Shown here: one piece after another, positions 17,208-34,934 of the stretch
How positions within the stretch are numbered: position 1 is the first letter of the stretch
Layout of the letters: every line of letters begins with the position of its first letter
Made by a program: the position numbers and the translations under genes
Assembly: GCA_019058315.1 (NCBI GenBank)
Contig: JAHPZH010000005.1
Span: 64,001-128,000 of the forward strand
Direction of reading: 5' to 3'
DNA: 64,000 nt
Source of the DNA: Candidatus Helarchaeota archaeon
GTDB lineage: Archaea; Asgardarchaeota; Lokiarchaeia; Helarchaeales; RDOG01
The notes under the pieces: generated by a model
Seen by the model: only the letters and a program-made list of their open reading frames with translations
What the model was told of the DNA's origin: nothing
Database searches by the model: none

Positions 17208-20200
17208 ATGGGAGATTTCAAGATGAGAATTAATAATTTTAAAAGAAAAGGAAAGATTTTCACAATTCTGATTATCATGCTTATTAGTTTTTCAAACATT
17301 CATTATATCTTTCAGAAAAATCAGCTTGATCCATATAATTTAGCATTATTTACAAATATTTTTACTTCTAATATAAGAATGCCTTCTAATGATGGTCCAT
17401 TTTCCACTAAGTCCTCCTCTAGTGATGTCATTGAGGGTAATGGAGGAAAGTTAGACACTTTATTATATGAAAATATTAGTGGTCAAGTTCTTTCTTGTGA
17501 TACTTCTTCTGATTTTTCTATTTATACAAATGGATGGAATATAACCAAAACAGATCTAATTTTCACAAATGTTAAGGCACCAACAGATATAGATATTGAA
17601 ATATCAGAACCATTTGCGGGTGAACATAGATTGGATACTTTAAGAGCGATGTCATTTACTGTAGGAAGCGTTACCTATTTAAAGAAAATAAATGTTAATT
17701 TGCGATTAAAAAAACTCTACCCTGGTAATGATTTAGATTTATCTGTATTTAATACAAAAGCTACTGGGGAACCCAATAATATTATTTATAATGAAGGATT
17801 TGATTTAGATAGCTATTCTGATGGTTGGATTGAATTAAATTTAAGTTCGGATGTCCTATTGGACCCTGCTGATACTAATAATAGTAAATTTTTCATAGGG
17901 TTAAAAGAAGGTTCTATTTTACCTTCTCCTCAAGTCTATTGGTATTATTTAAATGATCTCTCTACCCCAGATGGTTCAAATGAAGGTGATGACTATTCTT
18001 ACAGTTTTGGAATGTGGACTTCTAATGATGTAGATTATACTTTAGGTCTCACATTAGATACTAATACATTACCATCAAATATAGAATTAAAAGTGAATGG
18101 TATTAATGTGGAGAATTTACAAATAGGTAATGGTACTTGGAATTCATCTGTTTTATATATTGGACCTAATGTTACTTTTAATGTCGAAGCAAATACTTCA
18201 GCGAGATTTGATGTAAATTGGACATGTCAATTTATAAATCAAACATTATCTAATACTTATTTTATTTCTAATGCGAGTAAATCAATTGTCAATTGGAATT
18301 CATCTATTCCAGCTAAATTTCATGCTAATTCATATGCTAGAGGCATTAATATGACAATACCCCTAGATTGGAATATTACTGAAGTAATATATGATTCTAG
18401 CTCACATTTATCTTGGGTTAATATAACAGAAAATGGTAAAAAAATTAATATTATATCCAATGTTTTTAATTCTACCTGGATAGCAGTTTGTATTGGACCA
18501 AACTATGTACGTGAAATAAGCTTAGAAAGAAAGGTTGATTCTAGCTTCACTCCTGTTAACGGTCCAGTTAATGGAACAGATACTATTAGAATAAACGCAT
18601 CTATAAAAGACGGTAAGGGTATTGAAATAATTAATGGGAATGGAAATTTATCTATTTTTAATCCAGAAGAAACTCTAAATTATATTGATCATACACCCCC
18701 AAACAGTACCCATGCTTTAAATGGAATTATAAGTTTTACACCTTGGCGAATTAATTTAACTGGAACAATGGGTGGAAATTATACAATTCAAGTAGTATGG
18801 TATAACCAGACAGAAGTGGGGATAAATGTTACTTCTATTGATATTAAATCAATTCCAACTCAATTAACATTGATTTATAATACCATATCGGCTAATACAG
18901 GGGATCCAATTGATGCTATAATATATTATAACGACTCATATTGGGGATATGGTATTCCAAATGCTAATTTTTATTTAATTAATAACTATACTTCTGGTTA
19001 CCATTTTGATTTTACTGTAACTCCATTATCACCAATGGGTAATTATTCAATTGCAATTTCTACAGCTACATTAACCGCAGGCTCTTATGAATTTATTATT
19101 ATTGCTAATAAATCAGTATATAATACATCAACTGTTAATATCACATTTACTATTCAAGGGAATAAATCTTATGCTTGGATTGTTTCTGGAGCTACACCAG
19201 TTGGACCGTTACTTGGTGGAAGAACCTTAGATGATGGATCTTTTGTTTACGATAATTACACAACAACTCCTTTAAATGATCCCTACTGGGATGATACTTC
19301 TCATAAACTTACAATTTATTACAATGATACTGTAGGAAATCCTATTACAATCGAAGATGTTGATCTGGTTGAAATCAGATGGGATAATAACGAGACAGAC
19401 ATTATCCCAACTTTAGTGGGATCTGGCTTATATAATGTAACCATTGATACAACAGGAATTACTGCTGGAATACATTTCTTTTCAATCATTATGCAAACTT
19501 CTAATTATTATAGAGCATATTTGAATGTGAGTGTAACTGTAAAACCCGTTCCTACTCAAGTTGACCCCGGATTATATGGAAATGTTACTCAATATGAAGG
19601 AGAGGATTTAGAATTCTGGGTGGCATATTTAGATGTTTATCATTCAAATCAACGGATAGAATCTCCACCAGCCATTGTAAAATATAATATTACGGGCTTT
19701 CCAAATATAAATGGAACCATGACATATATAGGAGCCCCAAATTTTGCTTATCGTGGTGAATTTAACCTTGGAGACTTAAGTCTGGGATCTTATAACTTAA
19801 CCATCTATGCTAGTGCTGGCACTGAATACCTTGAAGCAATTAGAAATATAACCGTTAATGTAATTCCAAAATATAATGTCTCTTTAAACTTAATTGATAT
19901 TCCATTTGGTATTAGAGTTGGAGAGGAATTAATCATTAGAGCAAAATTAATTAATGATATTACAGGTGATCCTCTCAAGTATGTGCCCATAAATGTAAAA
20001 ATTACTTTTCTTGATAGTCAAAATGGAACCATATCAGAATTAGAAGCGGTTCTAATCACAAATAATAATGGAACAATAGAAGAATCCTTAATTGTTCCTC
20101 AAAATGTGAAATATGCTAATATTTCTTTATTTTATAACGGGGATGTCAATGTAACTTCGGCAGTAAATAACACAATTCTTAATATCGCCCCCAAAAGATC

Positions 20201-21920
20201 AGTTCATTTGATAGTATTTTCTCCAACACCTACAATATGGGTGGGGGAACTTTTATTTATTGGTGCAAGTTTAACATACGGAGATACTGGGGAAGCGATT
20301 TTTGATGGATCTGTTGAGTTTGAAATAATATTTTTTGGTGAAAGAATTCTCCGATTTACTCAGATTGGAAAAACAGGTTCTGATGGAATTACTTATATAA
20401 GTTTTCCTATTCCATCAGATATTTCGGGAGTTTATTTAATTATGATAAATGCACGACATTCTGGGTCAAATACCGAAGCTTCAACTACTTCAAATCTGTT
20501 TCCTATTAATCTGCTATCAACAGGAAGAATTTTTATAGAAAACATATGGCTTTTTATAGCAATAATTGGAGCGGTTTCTGCTATGGGGACTTATAAAACA
20601 TGGAATTATTTGAGAAATAGAGGGTGGAAGAAGAAGATTGACCATTTATTTATAATAACGCATGGGGGTTCACCTATAAAAGAGTGGAAAATGGGGGGAG
20701 CTATACTAGACGCAACTTTGGTTTCGGGAGCCTTAAGCGGGATTGCATCTATTGTACGAGAAATGACAAAAAGTGTTAAAAAATTAACTTCAATTGATCA
20801 TGAAGATAAAAAATTAATATTTGCTTATGGTAAATTTGTAATTGGGGTATTAATTACTGAAAAAGATCAACCAATAATACATAAAAAACTAGATAAATTT
20901 GTAGATAATTTTGAATCAAAGTATTTTTATTATTTATCCTCTTGGGATGGTAATTTAAAGTATTTTCAAGATGCAGATGATTTATTAGTTGATATTTTCC
21001 CATTTGCAATCCCAGAGACTGTTCAAGAAAAGATTAAATTATATCCAGATATTATTAAAAAGGAAAATAGAATAAGAGAATTAAATATTGAAGCGGGACA
21101 TCTTCTTATGGAAAATAAACCAGCTATGGCAATTGAATCTTATATAGTTGCTGCTAAAATAGCTATTGAAATTGGAGACTTAGAAATATTTGAGAATTTC
21201 ATTATAAATATAAATAATCTTCAAAAAAGACTCTCAAAATTTGAAAAAAGACCAATGAGAAAATTAGATATTAAAACCGAAACTAAAGATAAAAAGAATC
21301 TTGCAACTAATATCGAAAAAATTCAAAAAGCAATAAAAATCTCAGACTTCCTTACAGCATTAAAATTAACTACAAAAAATGCAAACATTTACATGGACCT
21401 AGGGCAATATGAAATTGTTTCAGAATTGTTTCAAAAGATCAATGAATATGGTAAAAAACACAAATTGAAAATGAGAGAGATTCAGTTAAAAGAAAGAACT
21501 CAAAAAACCACAGATAAGATCAACAAGTTGAAAATGAAAGCTGAACTAGAGATTGAAAATGGAAATTTTTTAAAAGCTGCTGATAAGTATAATGAGGCTG
21601 CTATACTCGCAATACAAAATAATGATAGAGATAACTTTCAAGACCTTATGTCAAAAGTCGAAAAATATCAAAAAACTGAAGAAGAGACTACTTTGAAAGC
21701 AGAAAAAGAACGACAATTACTAATTCTTAAGGAATCAATACCGAGGATATTAGCAGAGGCAGAATCAGCAAAACTATCTGGTGATTATGAAAAAATAATT
21801 GAATTATATTTAAAAGTAGCCAATATCAATCAAAGTATAGGTCATATGGAAAATTTTATGAAATATATAACAATAGCGAAAGAATATAGGACAAAACTTG
21901 AAAATTTTACAAACAAATGA
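17208..21920 (+). CDS. Giant single-pass surface protein: Ig-like/beta-sandwich ectodomain, TM helix, cytoplasmic longin and SNAP-like TPR domains
   Basis: N-terminal signal/anchor; N/T/S-rich beta repeats; TM 'IWLFIAIIGAVSAMGTY' (~20543-20595); longin 'IDHLFIITHGGSPI...LVSGALSGIASIVREM...WDGNLKYF'; TPR-like 'KAADKYNEAA'. Confidence 0.8.
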   Translation: MGDFKMRINNFKRKGKIFTILIIMLISFSNIHYIFQKNQLDPYNLALFTNIFTSNIRMPSNDGPFSTKSSSSDVIEGNGGKLDTLLYENISGQVLSCDTSSDFSIYTNGWNITKTDLIFTNVKAPTDIDIEISEPFAGEHRLDTLRAMSFTVGSVTYLKKINVNLRLKKLYPGNDLDLSVFNTKATGEPNNIIYNEGFDLDSYSDGWIELNLSSDVLLDPADTNNSKFFIGLKEGSILPSPQVYWYYLNDLSTPDGSNEGDDYSYSFGMWTSNDVDYTLGLTLDTNTLPSNIELKVNGINVENLQIGNGTWNSSVLYIGPNVTFNVEANTSARFDVNWTCQFINQTLSNTYFISNASKSIVNWNSSIPAKFHANSYARGINMTIPLDWNITEVIYDSSSHLSWVNITENGKKINIISNVFNSTWIAVCIGPNYVREISLERKVDSSFTPVNGPVNGTDTIRINASIKDGKGIEIINGNGNLSIFNPEETLNYIDHTPPNSTHALNGIISFTPWRINLTGTMGGNYTIQVVWYNQTEVGINVTSIDIKSIPTQLTLIYNTISANTGDPIDAIIYYNDSYWGYGIPNANFYLINNYTSGYHFDFTVTPLSPMGNYSIAISTATLTAGSYEFIIIANKSVYNTSTVNITFTIQGNKSYAWIVSGATPVGPLLGGRTLDDGSFVYDNYTTTPLNDPYWDDTSHKLTIYYNDTVGNPITIEDVDLVEIRWDNNETDIIPTLVGSGLYNVTIDTTGITAGIHFFSIIMQTSNYYRAYLNVSVTVKPVPTQVDPGLYGNVTQYEGEDLEFWVAYLDVYHSNQRIESPPAIVKYNITGFPNINGTMTYIGAPNFAYRGEFNLGDLSLGSYNLTIYASAGTEYLEAIRNITVNVIPKYNVSLNLIDIPFGIRVGEELIIRAKLINDITGDPLKYVPINVKITFLDSQNGTISELEAVLITNNNGTIEESLIVPQNVKYANISLFYNGDVNVTSAVNNTILNIAPKRSVHLIVFSPTPTIWVGELLFIGASLTYGDTGEAIFDGSVEFEIIFFGERILRFTQIGKTGSDGITYISFPIPSDISGVYLIMINARHSGSNTEASTTSNLFPINLLSTGRIFIENIWLFIAIIGAVSAMGTYKTWNYLRNRGWKKKIDHLFIITHGGSPIKEWKMGGAILDATLVSGALSGIASIVREMTKSVKKLTSIDHEDKKLIFAYGKFVIGVLITEKDQPIIHKKLDKFVDNFESKYFYYLSSWDGNLKYFQDADDLLVDIFPFAIPETVQEKIKLYPDIIKKENRIRELNIEAGHLLMENKPAMAIESYIVAAKIAIEIGDLEIFENFIININNLQKRLSKFEKRPMRKLDIKTETKDKKNLATNIEKIQKAIKISDFLTALKLTTKNANIYMDLGQYEIVSELFQKINEYGKKHKLKMREIQLKERTQKTTDKINKLKMKAELEIENGNFLKAADKYNEAAILAIQNNDRDNFQDLMSKVEKYQKTEEETTLKAEKERQLLILKESIPRILAEAESAKLSGDYEKIIELYLKVANINQSIGHMENFMKYITIAKEYRTKLENFTNK

Positions 21921-29981: not shown

Positions 29982-32900
29982 TTACTCTATTTGGAGTATA
30001 TTTACTGAAGAGTTTGCTCTTAAATCTACATTATACATTGGATAACCCACCGTCTCCTTTACAATTATTTCTCCCGGTTTTGTTGCAGTCATATTATAAG
30101 TTAAGGTTATTGATCCATCCAATTCATTTAGATAAAGATTCAATTTGTCACTAGTTAATTTATATGATGTGATTTGATATTCTTCCACCAGTTTCTTTAA
30201 TGATTGTTCCACAACTAAAAAACCAGCGGGGATAGGTTCCTCTATTGCAAACATTCCCTGTTTTTCGGTTGTTGTTATATTAAGTTTAACACTTATGGAA
30301 TCATTCTGTGCAACTTTATTTGAACTGAAATCTCTTGTTATTGTTAACATTTTGGGTTTTAGAAGATATTCTTTAGGATACCATGCTTCTATTGTTAAAT
30401 CGTACACTAATAAGCCCTCACCATTCTTTTCTAATATCAATTTATTTTCAGAATTTAGATTATCTAACGGAATATTTCTCATATCATAAACAATATGTTC
30501 TAAAGTGTCTTCATTTACTTCGAATTCTCCTATTACCTGTTTATTAAAAATTGCCTGTGTTAGAAAATTCGTTTTTTCGCTTCTTGCGCAATTAGAAAGA
30601 CAAAGAATAGCGGCTATAGTATCTGATGTTGTACTCCATCCACCACCTTTAGCGCGATTAGCCATAATATAATTTAAGACCCTTTGAACATTTACTGGAT
30701 CTCCTCCTGCAATATTTAAAGCTAGTGCAGCATAAGCTGTAGATTCAACTTTTCCAGCTAGTGATGAACCAACGTCCCAATAGACGAAATCGCCTTCATT
30801 ATGAGCTGATGTATTTAATTTTTCTATAAGGAGGTTCAATTCCTTATTGTATTTATTTGACCCTTCTTTAATGATGTCGATTATTAAATAGGCTAATAGG
30901 TTTGGGTCGTTCGTTCTCTTTGAGGAGAGGATAGCGTTTGATATAATATTTTCTAAAGCTTTGTCAATAATTTCTTGATTTACGTTATATCCAGCTTTTT
31001 TAGCCTCGAGTAATGCTTGTATAACATACGCTGTACAGAAGTCTTTCCCTCGTCTATTTGATTCCCAAGTCCCTTGAGAAGTTTGTATTTTCTTTAATTC
31101 TTCTATTGCAGCATTAATTAGTTTTTTTTCTATAAAAAATCCCGAGTTAATTGTATAAGCCAAACCAAACAATACATAGGCTGTAGTGAAAGGCTCTGAT
31201 TGCTCATTTCCCCAATATCCCCAACCACCACGGTCATTTCGAAGACTTATTAATTGTTGAATACCCTTAGTTGTCATTTCTTCAAATTGTTCTTGGAATT
31301 TGTTAGTAAGCATATTATTTTCTTTTAGCAGATTGTAAACTAGAACGTTAGGTAAAAATTTCGACATAGTTTGTTCTACACAACCATGAGGATATCCTAA
31401 TATCGATTCTAATCCATCCATGCAACCCATTTGATAACCAGGTATCAATGAAAGGCGTGCTTTATAAAAAATTGCGTCTCTTGGTATAGTTGGAGATATA
31501 TTAATAATTTCATCTTCCAAAATAAGTCCCGTATATCTGAAAATATGAGGTTCTCCTTTAGGATTTATTTTTATTTTTTTTCTTAAGACATCAATATGCT
31601 TCGGTGTTTTAGCTTCGATCCAAAATGTCGCCTCACCTGGATTAATTGCTTTCAATTTGAAATCGAGACGTTTCATCCCATTTGCAGGAACGAGAATATT
31701 CCCTTTCGGTATGTCAACTTTTAATTTATATTTATCAGCATTTAAATTAACGTTACATTCTAAGTTTTCTTTTGTTAGATTTGTCAAAATTATTCCAAGT
31801 TGAATATTATCTCCATGAGTTAAAACTGGTGGGATATCAAGTTTTGCAAAAAAATCTTGTTTAACTGTAATTCTATGAGTTCCCATACCTATCTCACAAT
31901 CTTTTGTACTTGCAAACACTGTCAACTCATGACTTGTTATCTGATCTGGTAGCTCTGTTTCTAGCATAGATTGACCATCTGATTCTAGGAATGGAATCCA
32001 AAGAGATGTTTCTGGGAAATTGAATCGAACACTGACCATAGATATTGGGTTTACTGAATCAGTTAAAATTAAACCTAATTTTGCACCCGGCGTACTAGAA
32101 CCCCCAAAGCATCTATGAACAACACTTGGACCGCTTGATTTGCCAGCGACTGAATAAAAACCATAACCTGAACCTGAACTTGTGGTAATACCAATTGTTC
32201 GTTTATAATCCTTAGTGAAAGATCCTCCCCTTAACATCAGCGCTTCTTCTCCAATATAATATTCACGTGAATAATGTTCGACATCGGTCATAATTGACAT
32301 ATATTTTGGATACCCTACTATAGTGGGAAGCACAGAACGAGGACCATCTTCTCCTGCAAAACCCGCATAACTAAAATTCGATCCTAATTCCAAACAGATG
32401 GGGTTTCCTTTTGGATCTTTGTATACTTTCGGTTTTACCTTTTTGAGAGATTTGAATTTTATATCAATTTTTTGAATAAATTTTTGTATTTGCCTTTTAG
32501 AATCACTCTTTATCAACATTTCATTAAGAACTGCTTTTATTTCGTTTGTAAGGGGAGAATCTTTTGTACAAATTGTATTAAAAATCCTTTCGCTAATATT
32601 AATTAAACATTCATCTTCTTGTTCCTTTGTAATATGACCCTCTTTTGATAACTGATGAATATCTGTAACTATTTCTTGATACAAATCAATATTATTATCA
32701 TCGATTTGGCTTATCTCATCTTCTGCAGCTATCATTAAGATGTTATTATCATTTACTAGAATCAAACTTTCAGAAATAATTTTTAAAATATTATAAATGA
32801 GAGTTTTACTGTTTTTTTCTTTATTTTTTTCTGCAATTTCTTGAATAAGTTCAATTATTTTCCTCTTTACAAGCCTATGATTAACATCTTGTATCATCCC

Positions 32901-34934
32901 AGCTTTCTTTGTAATTCTTAGAAATTCAAGCCCTGTACCAACTAACTTAGGATTGAGATAAATATAGTGAATTAGTGCATCTAATAGTGCATTAAAATAT
33001 GGTCCATATTCTTTTGTATCCCAACTCAATATTTCTGAATTATTTTTCTTGATAAATTCCTTTTTAAAAAATATTTCTAATGGAGTTTCAATTTTTCGTC
33101 CTAATTGGAGAACAGATGCATCAACTAACATAGCACCTAAGCAGCATGCTATAGCTTTATCATCTTGTAATATTTTAACTTGAAAATTAGCCTTATTACC
33201 GGGTTGATAAGTGCTTTTATCACTTTCAATATCAATTTTTAGCTCTTTTCTCTCAGGATTTACGTAAATCTTTCTTTCATTTTTTTCTAGGATACCATTT
33301 GATCTAAAAGCATATGTTATAACTTTTAAATTACCCCACATCTTTCTAGTGATTGGAATTTTAAAATCCGCCGTTCCCTCAGTTGCAAGCTTCACTGTTC
33401 TATAAATTATATTCTCCTTCTCGATATCGACATAGATAGGAATATTCTCCCTATCAACAACTGCATTTAAATGTAAAAAATCGTTAATATTTAAGCTAGG
33501 GGATTCTATGTTTGTATTAAGCCATATTTTTGGGTTTTCTTTTTCTCCTTCTTTCTGCTCTTTTTCTTCTTTTATTACTGCTTTTTCAACAGTCAGTCCT
33601 TTGCGGACTGTTTTGGATTCATCTAATAATTCCGATTCAATCATGATATTAATATCAAAATTCTTCTTTTTCTCTGTAGGATAATCAATTTCAAAAGTTA
33701 AGGGACATCTTCCTTCATTATCTGTTTTTGCTACTTTGAATTTTGCATGGTGTTTCAGCTCAGTATCATTTATCGAAGCTAAAACAAAACACTCGTTTAA
33801 TGGGACTTTTTTATTTTCTAGGGTTGGAACTTCTGTTTTAATTATTACTTCTGCTTGTTGACCTGGTTCAATACTTCTCGCCATATCTGTTGTTACGATC
33901 AAAGCTTGCTTTACTGTGCTAATTTTTATTTCCTTATTAGCTTTGCGTTTTAAACTGTCAGTAAGTTCAAATATAATTTTAGATTCTCCCTCTTTCATTT
34001 CAGGAACTTGGAACCTATAAATATATTCTCCTTTTTCATCTGTTTCCCCATAAGTTTGGAGAATTTGTTTATTTTCTGGTGATATAATTTCAATTTTAGC
34101 ATTGGCTTTTTTCACGGGTGCTCCGTAAAAATATTCGGACTTTAATTCGAGTCTAAATTCGTCCCCTATTTTTAGATATTCTGGTTCACATTTTACTTTC
34201 AATTCTATGTCTGGTGGTTGATAATTCTCGATTTTAATTGATTTTTCAGATTTAAAACCTTTAACCGAAACTTTAACTTTATAAACTCCTTCTATTGCCT
34301 CTTCAGCTATTGGAATTTGAAGTTCTCCTATCCCAAATTTAGAATCACATGAAATTTTTCTAATAAGTATCCTATTATTTTGTGGATCAGTTAATGTTAC
34401 TTTAATAGGCTCTTGACTTGGTTGATAAGTACTTCCTAACAGTTTCCAAAGGATAAAACGAATAAGTATCCTCTGTCCTGGCATGTAATAATCACGATCT
34501 GTAATCATATAGCATATATATTCTTCCTCTTTTCTGGTAAGATCCAACCTCAAAGTTTTTTCTTTTCCATCAATTTTAACCTTAATTTCATAAAATTTAT
34601 ATTCAGCATCAAATTCAAATTCCAATGAACCTAAATTATCTGTTAATCCCTTAAAAACAGTTTTATTGCCGTTGATCAACTTTACTTTACAATTAATGGG
34701 AAAAAAGTTCTGATCCATACAAATAATACGGCCAGAAATTTTCTCACCTTCTTCGAACTCCGAATTCATTTTAACAAAAATAAGTGGGGGTTCCCTTAAA
34801 TTCGAAATTTGACTGATCAGACTTTGAACTTTCTCAACATCTATTGAAGTTATTTGATTAAGAATATCCACATCAAGTTTATCTTTTTCTTTAATATTGA
34901 GGAGCCTTTTTAGTTTTTTACATGTTGTATCCAA
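29982..34934 (-). CDS. Alpha-2-macroglobulin/thioester-containing protein without signal peptide; expanded bait region contains actin and GTPase fragments
   Basis: 'TDRDYYMPGQ', 'YFYGAPV', 'SDKSTYQPG', 'LVDASVL', 'RFNFPETSLW', thioester GYPHGCVEQT (CVEQ 31371-31382), 'VESTAYAALA', 'GGWSTTSDT', 'EEPIPAGF'. Confidence 0.92.
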   Translation of the reverse strand: MDTTCKKLKRLLNIKEKDKLDVDILNQITSIDVEKVQSLISQISNLREPPLIFVKMNSEFEEGEKISGRIICMDQNFFPINCKVKLINGNKTVFKGLTDNLGSLEFEFDAEYKFYEIKVKIDGKEKTLRLDLTRKEEEYICYMITDRDYYMPGQRILIRFILWKLLGSTYQPSQEPIKVTLTDPQNNRILIRKISCDSKFGIGELQIPIAEEAIEGVYKVKVSVKGFKSEKSIKIENYQPPDIELKVKCEPEYLKIGDEFRLELKSEYFYGAPVKKANAKIEIISPENKQILQTYGETDEKGEYIYRFQVPEMKEGESKIIFELTDSLKRKANKEIKISTVKQALIVTTDMARSIEPGQQAEVIIKTEVPTLENKKVPLNECFVLASINDTELKHHAKFKVAKTDNEGRCPLTFEIDYPTEKKKNFDINIMIESELLDESKTVRKGLTVEKAVIKEEKEQKEGEKENPKIWLNTNIESPSLNINDFLHLNAVVDRENIPIYVDIEKENIIYRTVKLATEGTADFKIPITRKMWGNLKVITYAFRSNGILEKNERKIYVNPERKELKIDIESDKSTYQPGNKANFQVKILQDDKAIACCLGAMLVDASVLQLGRKIETPLEIFFKKEFIKKNNSEILSWDTKEYGPYFNALLDALIHYIYLNPKLVGTGLEFLRITKKAGMIQDVNHRLVKRKIIELIQEIAEKNKEKNSKTLIYNILKIISESLILVNDNNILMIAAEDEISQIDDNNIDLYQEIVTDIHQLSKEGHITKEQEDECLINISERIFNTICTKDSPLTNEIKAVLNEMLIKSDSKRQIQKFIQKIDIKFKSLKKVKPKVYKDPKGNPICLELGSNFSYAGFAGEDGPRSVLPTIVGYPKYMSIMTDVEHYSREYYIGEEALMLRGGSFTKDYKRTIGITTSSGSGYGFYSVAGKSSGPSVVHRCFGGSSTPGAKLGLILTDSVNPISMVSVRFNFPETSLWIPFLESDGQSMLETELPDQITSHELTVFASTKDCEIGMGTHRITVKQDFFAKLDIPPVLTHGDNIQLGIILTNLTKENLECNVNLNADKYKLKVDIPKGNILVPANGMKRLDFKLKAINPGEATFWIEAKTPKHIDVLRKKIKINPKGEPHIFRYTGLILEDEIINISPTIPRDAIFYKARLSLIPGYQMGCMDGLESILGYPHGCVEQTMSKFLPNVLVYNLLKENNMLTNKFQEQFEEMTTKGIQQLISLRNDRGGWGYWGNEQSEPFTTAYVLFGLAYTINSGFFIEKKLINAAIEELKKIQTSQGTWESNRRGKDFCTAYVIQALLEAKKAGYNVNQEIIDKALENIISNAILSSKRTNDPNLLAYLIIDIIKEGSNKYNKELNLLIEKLNTSAHNEGDFVYWDVGSSLAGKVESTAYAALALNIAGGDPVNVQRVLNYIMANRAKGGGWSTTSDTIAAILCLSNCARSEKTNFLTQAIFNKQVIGEFEVNEDTLEHIVYDMRNIPLDNLNSENKLILEKNGEGLLVYDLTIEAWYPKEYLLKPKMLTITRDFSSNKVAQNDSISVKLNITTTEKQGMFAIEEPIPAGFLVVEQSLKKLVEEYQITSYKLTSDKLNLYLNELDGSITLTYNMTATKPGEIIVKETVGYPMYNVDLRANSSVNILQIE

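Follow-up and report, generated by a model that had tools for sequence, protein, structure and literature searches.

Why does the macroglobulin gene of an Asgard archaeon carry a piece of actin in its bait region, and what is the relation of that piece to a nearby gene for an actin that lacks its N-terminus? The question is raised by a 64,000-nucleotide (nt) stretch of Candidatus Helarchaeota archaeon (GCA_019058315.1, contig JAHPZH010000005.1, positions 64,001-128,000 of the forward strand), which we refer to as the window and which contains an operon that begins with a gene of the alpha-2-macroglobulin (A2M) family and ends with a truncated actin. A preliminary description of the window had placed actin residues within amino acids (aa) 845-903 of the A2M protein, and the reverse complement of positions 32226-32402 gives exactly these 59 residues, on the minus strand, a detail that the description had left unstated. 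The sequence anatomy of the two genes, their complementarity, their conservation and the pattern of selection on them are direct observations, and it is likely that the A2M piece and the last gene of the operon jointly constitute a two-gene pseudo-actin.

The piece comprises strands beta1-beta3 of subdomain 1 together with the whole of subdomain 2. The Pfam Actin profile (PF00022) matches it with its positions 5-55 at aa 844-901 (E 2.5e-6 for the whole protein and 1.7e-7 for the excised piece). The genome carries one canonical Lokiactin, of 378 aa, on a different contig, and BLASTP aligns the bait piece to residues 9-67 of this protein without a gap and with 40/59 identical residues (68%, E 2e-28), in agreement with the earlier remark that the D-loop is close to that of Lokiactin. 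Some 4.3 kb and two von Willebrand A (VWA) genes separate the piece from a 308-aa open reading frame (ORF) that had been taken for its continuation; this ORF indeed matches positions 65-408 of the Actin profile (E 6e-55). The join is exact to the residue, the bait piece ending in ...EEALMLRG and the ORF starting with M-VLRNTFPI where the canonical sequence reads ...EEALQLRG-VLRLNYPI, so that overlap and gap are both 0; the claimed absence of either (LRG followed by (M)VLR, against canonical LRGVLR) is therefore literally true. A complete four-subdomain actin on a single chain is not present here, and bait piece and ORF jointly span the family model; when concatenated, as had been proposed as a check, they are colinear with Asgard actins. 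Protein trans-splicing by a split intein was considered and rejected, as there are no intein blocks and what comes after the junction is a Gly/Ser linker and an MG domain; neither the A2M nor the truncated actin of the window has a Hint/intein Pfam match.

The surrounding protein is clearly a member of the A2M/TEP family. Its Pfam matches (MG2, A2M_BRD, A2M, TED_complement and bMG10) all exceed their cut-offs, with PF07703 (A2M_BRD) at aa 494-611, PF00207 (A2M) at aa 976-1064 and the TED at aa 1172-1447, and its best solved relatives in phmmer are human A2M (E 4e-34), CD109 and TEP1. We note in passing that by sequence it is nearer to the eukaryotic A2M/CD109/TEP1 proteins (E 4e-34 to 4e-27) than to the bacterial 4u48/YfhM (E 1e-16 to 3e-15). 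The actin piece lies between PF07703 and PF00207 (aa 612-975), and in an alignment to human A2M (6tav) residue 968 corresponds to chain residue 730, immediately past the human bait; the piece therefore sits in the bait position. The thioester motif reads GCVEQ, with its Cys at residue 1185, and CxEQ is retained in every D-loop-bearing relative that we examined save the Heimdallarchaeota protein P0143, which has CVDQ.

The same succession of an A2M with an actin piece, a VWA gene and a truncated actin occurs in four further operons, from GCA_019056875.1, GCA_041862095.1, a Logan assembly and two JGI metagenomes. The contig of GCA_019056875.1 is that of genome G158, of another class, a related A2M being called Freyarchaeota by its source, and GCA_041862095.1 is called Lokiarchaeia by its source. 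In these orthologues, which we term type I, the A2M measures 1630-1660 aa and has a Pfam actin match, the truncated actin measures 306-311 aa, the five bait pieces are free of indels and the five partners start with MVLK or MVLR. One might suppose that the locus is an assembly chimera, or else a decaying and functionless remnant of a rearranged actin gene, all the more since the 40 nearest species-level genomes hold an orthologue of neither gene, their matches being canonical actins or distant A2Ms of ~2000 aa. Against this, the architecture is the same in independent NCBI, JGI, ENA and Logan assemblies, with frames intact at 53-61% identity, conserved gene lengths and intergenic gaps of 0-16 nt. 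The agreement of independent assemblies led us to reject a chimera, and chimera or remnant together are extremely improbable.

More distant A2Ms, 25-36% identical to that of the window, bear the D-loop peptide GYPKY(T)SIMTDV at the same site, just before the next MG domain, and in these the point at which actin is broken has shifted. In genome G244 the A2M piece ends in ...SIMTDV, followed by GG (Pfam actin 6-45, E 4e-4 for the excised piece), and the partner actin, 1 nt downstream of the A2M, covers profile positions 45-407 and resumes at REYYVGEEALQLRG. The break is the same in G280 and G281, where the piece ends at V49, the partner resumes at R54 and the partner gene lies upstream of the A2M. 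On a Sigynarchaeota contig the piece ends in ...REYYVDE (near E60) and the partner starts with MALKGVLKL (near Q64; profile from 57), and in BAJALOKI1 the piece ends in ...RESYSGG (G59) and an upstream partner starts with MSEVFQLSGILKI (E60). In canonical numbering the break points are thus 67/68, ~60/64, 59/60 and 49/54, and complementarity is exact or near-exact at all four, in three gene orders and at least nine operons. That the break sites differ and the halves nevertheless remain complementary in distant relatives is hard to explain unless the halves act as one unit. All variants have the first half of the D-loop on the A2M chain, with the break C-terminal to that half.

A profile search returned 11 clusters at E <1e-30, and the D-loop-bearing members are assigned by their source names to Lokiarchaeia, Freyarchaeota, Sigynarchaeota, Hodarchaeota and Heimdallarchaeota. 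The columns P..G.PKY..IM.D are invariant across nine A2Ms of only ~30% mutual identity. The motif was found in 0 of 80 other A2M loci among the matches listed (78 bacterial and 2 Asgard), and it is absent from the Asgard loci for A2Ms of ~2000 aa, as far as those loci extend.

The preliminary description had also proposed that fragment and core be folded together. We predicted the complex from the truncated actin (alignment of 15 rows) and the bait piece (alignment of 14 rows) and obtained an actin fold with a free D-loop, at an ipSAE of 0.88, 0.88 and 0.89 in three runs against 0.00 for the best of three controls; the mark applied to this score is reached by 58/80 solved complexes and 2/110 mismatched pairs. 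The runs share at least 87% of contacts, and the pLDDT of the partner is at least 75. In the model, beta1 of the fragment (residues 6-11) pairs with residues 39-44 of the partner, the interface includes residues on either side of the split (partner 1-12, fragment 62-64), and the D-loop (fragment residues 40-52, aa 879-891) makes no confident contact with the partner. The actin fold has already been solved, and the pass may consequently reflect memory of that fold: it speaks for likeness to solved actin and is not proof of binding.

Alternatively, the bait might be a linear peptide mimic and nothing more, the truncated actin remaining unbound with a separate role, for instance as a cofactor or regulator. 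The bait regions of A2Ms are usually unstructured, and two relatives, G087 and P0143, carry little beyond the D-loop peptide and lack a recognisable actin gene adjacent to the A2M (a 355-aa ORF downstream in G087 was tried as the partner and rejected, its hhalign probability against the truncated-actin profile being 1%). A linear mimic would leave several observations without explanation: beta1-beta3, which would have no role in a bait, are indel-free in the five orthologues; from subdomain 1 of the partner three core strands are missing; the halves stay complementary at all the break points and in all the gene orders described above; in type II, which is broken within the D-loop, the two halves of subdomain 2 are on separate polypeptides and both are canonical; and the predicted complex, for what a model of a known fold may tell us, passed. 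We consider the linear mimic quite improbable.

If the two halves form one unit, which of its parts are kept and which are lost? The split actins are 21-58% identical to canonical Lokiactin in residues 9-32 (beta1-beta3), 67-94% in residues 33-50, 71-88% in residues 51-67 and 35-48% in residues 68-378. Ordinary Asgard actin paralogues reach 22-53% in residues 33-67, which is also where eukaryotic actins least resemble Lokiactin. In type II, residues 51-67 are on the partner and not on the A2M and are still 76-82% identical; the entire subdomain 2 therefore stays canonical wherever it is encoded. A profile in 12-residue windows against the canonical consensus peaks at residues 37-60, at 0.85-0.92 in type I, and the nucleotide-site segments are low. 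In the window the ATP site has lost phosphate-1 (DNGTG to ELGSN), Q137 (to A), phosphate-2 (DxGDG to RL-KN), H161 (to Y) and G302 (deleted), and the loss is similar in 8/8 split actins examined. It spans both halves, phosphate-1 being lost on the A2M piece and the other residues on the partner, which fits one degenerate unit.

The conservation is not that of a recent copy. At conserved residues, the identity to the host actin at third codon positions is 19/40 (47.5%) for the bait piece and 62/131 (47.3%) for the partner, against a chance value of 33%; both parts are therefore equally old, and the conservation reflects purifying selection. Recent gene conversion from the host actin was likewise rejected, as synonymous divergence is equal in the halves and the G244 pieces differ from that genome's own canonical actin at three positions (counted by eye). 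In a tree of the C-terminal part, the clade of canonical Lokiactin and eukaryotic actin excludes the five type-I partners, which group together (SH-aLRT 99), the position of type II being unresolved on long branches; in a tree of the N-terminal part, which has 59 columns and weak support, the split pieces stand beside the canonical Asgard clade and away from paralogues and eukaryotic actins. These separate trees, which had been suggested beforehand, place both parts outside the canonical Lokiactin clade and beside it, with neither in an unrelated clade, and nothing in the sequences indicates an unrelated origin of the halves. All the computational checks suggested beforehand favoured the earlier reading, a split actin that may reassemble in trans.

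The same pattern of conservation could be read in terms of the cytoskeleton itself. Longitudinal contacts in F-actin are made chiefly by the D-loop, and the D-loop and pointed face of the pseudo-actin might dock in the barbed-end cleft of Lokiactin filaments, capping them or anchoring the A2M and VWA proteins there. It is precisely the D-loop that has stayed canonical, the barbed-face segments having drifted (matches to the consensus of 0.27-0.43), a drift that as judged from sequence argues against normal filament polymerisation of the pseudo-actin, and the subdomain-4 tip SYxLPDG is fairly well kept, at 0.72; this tip is conserved in ordinary paralogues also (0.52). Such an adaptor would offer no reason for the first half of the D-loop always being on the A2M chain before the next MG domain, and none for keeping the thioester CxEQ and a full TED domain. 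We therefore think an adaptor unlikely.

It is the placement of the D-loop that leads us to favour a trap. In known A2Ms, cleavage of the bait springs the trap and exposes the thioester. As the first half of the D-loop is always on the A2M chain, any cut there severs the A2M, and does so at the site where the trap is sprung, from which we arrive at a trap that mimics a substrate. The A2M chain would supply beta1-beta3 and subdomain 2 with its D-loop, the last gene of the operon would supply the remainder of the actin fold, and the two would associate non-covalently, completing the beta-sheet of subdomain 1. The product would be an ATP-blind actin look-alike tethered in the bait, with a subdomain 2 near-identical to that of filament-forming Lokiactin; the two genes, in short, probably rebuild a dead look-alike that shows the cell's own D-loop as bait. 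A cut in this D-loop would sever the A2M after its bait-region domain and ahead of the next MG domain, and the severed bait would spring the trap and expose the thioester for covalent capture of the protease, which might be an actin-directed enzyme from a virus, a bacterium or the cell itself. To the VWA proteins we would assign an accessory role. We put the probability that the system is a cytoplasmic trap of the A2M family, with a reassembled pseudo-actin bait as a decoy for an actin-directed protease, at roughly 0.55; this functional claim is weaker than the structural claim of a two-gene pseudo-actin. More tentatively, at somewhat less than even odds, we suggest that an intracellular thioester trap akin to complement and TEPs guards the Asgard actin cytoskeleton, its integrated decoy allowing attackers of the Lokiactin D-loop to be captured covalently.

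Physical reassembly, cytoplasmic location, cleavage of the D-loop and covalent capture are the four steps that we infer. A hydrophobic N-terminal segment is absent from 15 of the 15 A2M family members (maximum 15-residue Kyte-Doolittle mean at most 1.13, by a simple scan and not a dedicated predictor), the value for the A2M of the window being 0.55 over 15 residues within the first 75 aa, and none was seen by eye in the partner actin; a cytoplasmic location is therefore most likely, so far as sequence can tell. As for cleavage, actin is cut within its D-loop, at Gly42-Val43, by the bacterial actinases grimelysin and protealysin, which when dosed higher also cut at Gly63-Ile64; the 8- and 36-kDa fragments of the cleaved actin remain associated (PMC7311988). 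Protealysin-like proteases are also found in certain archaea (PMC6778150). By alignment with Asgard actins, Gly63-Ile64 is the type-I split point.

Several points weigh against the decoy trap. Nicked eukaryotic actin holds together only with cation and nucleotide bound (PMC7311988), and the pseudo-actin has lost the very site that stabilises it. G087 and P0143, with little beyond the D-loop peptide and no detectable adjacent actin, imply that reassembly is not required in every member. The absence of a signal peptide is taken from a hydrophobicity scan alone, no candidate protease was identified, and the neighbours of the operon are metabolic and two-component genes, with no recognisable defence island and no PADLOC match.

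The features of the operon are collected in Table 1.

Table 1. Features of the A2M-VWA-actin operon, in positions of the window.
Feature	Position	Strand	Remarks
A2M / thioester-protein gene	29982..34934	-	1650 aa, TTG start; ORF and Pfam domains
Insert of ~230 aa (aa 612-844), from A2M_BRD to actin piece	32403..33101	-	no family match
Actin N-terminal piece (A2M aa 845-903)	32226..32402	-	corresponds to canonical Lokiactin 9-67
D-loop segment GYPKYMSIMTDVEHYSRE (aa 874-891)	32262..32315	-	best-conserved stretch of the entire bait region
Variable Gly/Ser/Pro-rich bait remainder (aa 904-968)	32031..32225	-	reaches VRFNFPETSLW, the start of the next MG domain
Putative thioester motif C-V-E-Q (aa 1185-1188), in TED	31371..31382	-	regular expression and Pfam TED
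VWA protein 1, 342 aa	28937..29965	-	helical N-terminal part and von Willebrand A domain; Pfam VWA E 7.9e-11
VWA protein 2, 345 aa	27895..28932	-	paralogue of VWA protein 1; Pfam VWA E 9.3e-12
N-terminally truncated pseudo-actin, 308 aa	26962..27888	-	corresponds to canonical residues 68-378; starts 6 nt past VWA 2

Within the A2M, the insert between A2M_BRD and the actin piece gave zero matches in Pfam and is conserved among the type-I orthologues. The bait remainder that follows the piece has many indels among orthologues and contains the short peptides DYKRTIG and SGPSVVHRCF. Among the orthologues, DYKR[ST]IG occurs in the linker of the window and of L043 only, and a peptide resembling the actin C-terminus (x-V-V-H-R/E-x-F/C) is shared by the window, L042 and L045; the C-terminus of the truncated actin itself is different. 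NCBIfam gave no relevant match.

The genes around the A2M vary from operon to operon. The tandem duplication of the VWA gene is peculiar to the window; the gene is single in the four orthologous operons and missing from those of G244 and G280/G281, and the Sigynarchaeota operon has in this slot a 311-aa TPR-like protein with no VWA Pfam match. In both G281 (L083:2539-3660) and G280 (L084:1959-3053), the gene immediately after the A2M, on the same strand, encodes an Abhydrolase_3 alpha/beta-hydrolase. Elsewhere in the window, a 1570-aa ORF (17208-21920, plus strand), for which Pfam gave nothing at E <=0.01, has a PAS/GAF histidine kinase and a response regulator downstream of it, and in L045 these two also flank the orthologous operon.

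Three further genes recall parts of actin. In Heimdallarchaeota GCA_014730365.1 (L091:4139-5944), a 601-aa TPR protein upstream of the A2M P0143 has no actin Pfam match and bears near its N-terminus EPLQLRGVLKLGDG, which in actin is the continuation of the D-loop peptide ...HYTREYYG found in the bait of P0143; it could be the remnant of a partner or a chance resemblance. A 1226-bp contig (ENA ERZ23498360, L041:484-1140) encodes a 218-aa ORF, 60% identical to the truncated actin of the window and starting ~88 residues further in, which adjoins a NIL-domain gene and not a VWA gene, and which may be a further truncated copy or the product of a short chimeric contig. Finally, the 715-aa protein P0153 (L093:6001-8148, L094:1163-3310), present on five contigs from at least two samples and not adjoining an A2M, starts at about actin residue 79 and extends as far as the end of actin (Pfam profile 69-409); a short linker then leads to the N-terminal ~65 residues of actin, including a canonical D-loop, and these are followed by an E/K-rich linker and a hydrophobic C-terminal region. 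By its sequence it looks like a circularly permuted actin.

In the literature we found no description of an Asgard macroglobulin with a split actin or a comparable bait; a preprint on the CAGE complex proved to be unrelated. The database annotations of these genes read only "MG2 domain-containing", "alpha-2-macroglobulin family" or "hypothetical". To our knowledge no natural two-gene actin has been described, and we know of no integrated-decoy sensor outside plant NLRs. What is new is thus not the protein family but a conserved, folded bait made from a host protein by two genes, in a protein that is apparently intracellular.

Whatever its function, the system represents a natural experiment on actin folding, in which splits are tolerated after Lokiactin residues 49, 59, 60 and 67, and possibly circular permutation also. 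It physically combines, in the closest archaeal relatives of eukaryotes, the A2M/TEP/complement proteins and actin, which are hallmarks of eukaryotic immunity and cell biology. If the decoy reading is true, the actin cytoskeleton of Asgard archaea is a target worth guarding, actin-cleaving enzymes may be expected in Asgard viruses or neighbouring organisms, and there is a prokaryotic precedent for integrated-decoy sensing and for A2M baits that are specific rather than broad. If moreover the trap guards the cytoskeleton, attack on actin and defence against it would predate the eukaryotes.

How does this arrangement compare with known systems? With the A2Ms and TEPs (human A2M 6tav, CD109, insect TEP1, bacterial ECAM/YfhM) it shares the MG array, the bait position, a TED with CxEQ and a C-terminal MG/RBD-like domain, and cleavage of the bait, the trigger that we propose, is how that family is known to work. 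It differs in that a simple scan shows neither a signal peptide nor a lipobox in the Asgard A2M, in that the bait holds the best-conserved part of the region, known baits being the most variable, and in that this bait consists of part of a folded host protein, with a second gene to complete it and the extra insert in front of it. Lokiactin and the Asgard actin paralogues and actin-related proteins belong to the same fold family, and both split parts branch beside canonical Asgard actins; unlike those proteins, the split pseudo-actin is on two genes, is ATP-blind and is canonical in subdomain 2 only.

Actin nicked by proteases (grimelysin/ECP32 or protealysin; PMC7311988) likewise consists of two pieces held non-covalently and broken in the D-loop or at Gly63-Ile64, and by alignment the type-II break falls in the D-loop and that of type I corresponds to Gly63-Ile64. 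In the Asgard case, however, it is the genome that specifies the break; each piece is made on its own, another protein has one of them built into it, and the nucleotide site is lost. In plants, the sensor of an NLR integrated-decoy system carries a copy of a host target, and attack on the copy triggers the sensor. The likeness here would lie in a copy of the host target that is kept similar within the sensor; the differences lie in the receptor family, in the domain of life, in the attacker, which is known for none of the operons described here, and in the read-out, which is NLR signalling in plants and would be a thioester trap in the Asgard archaea.

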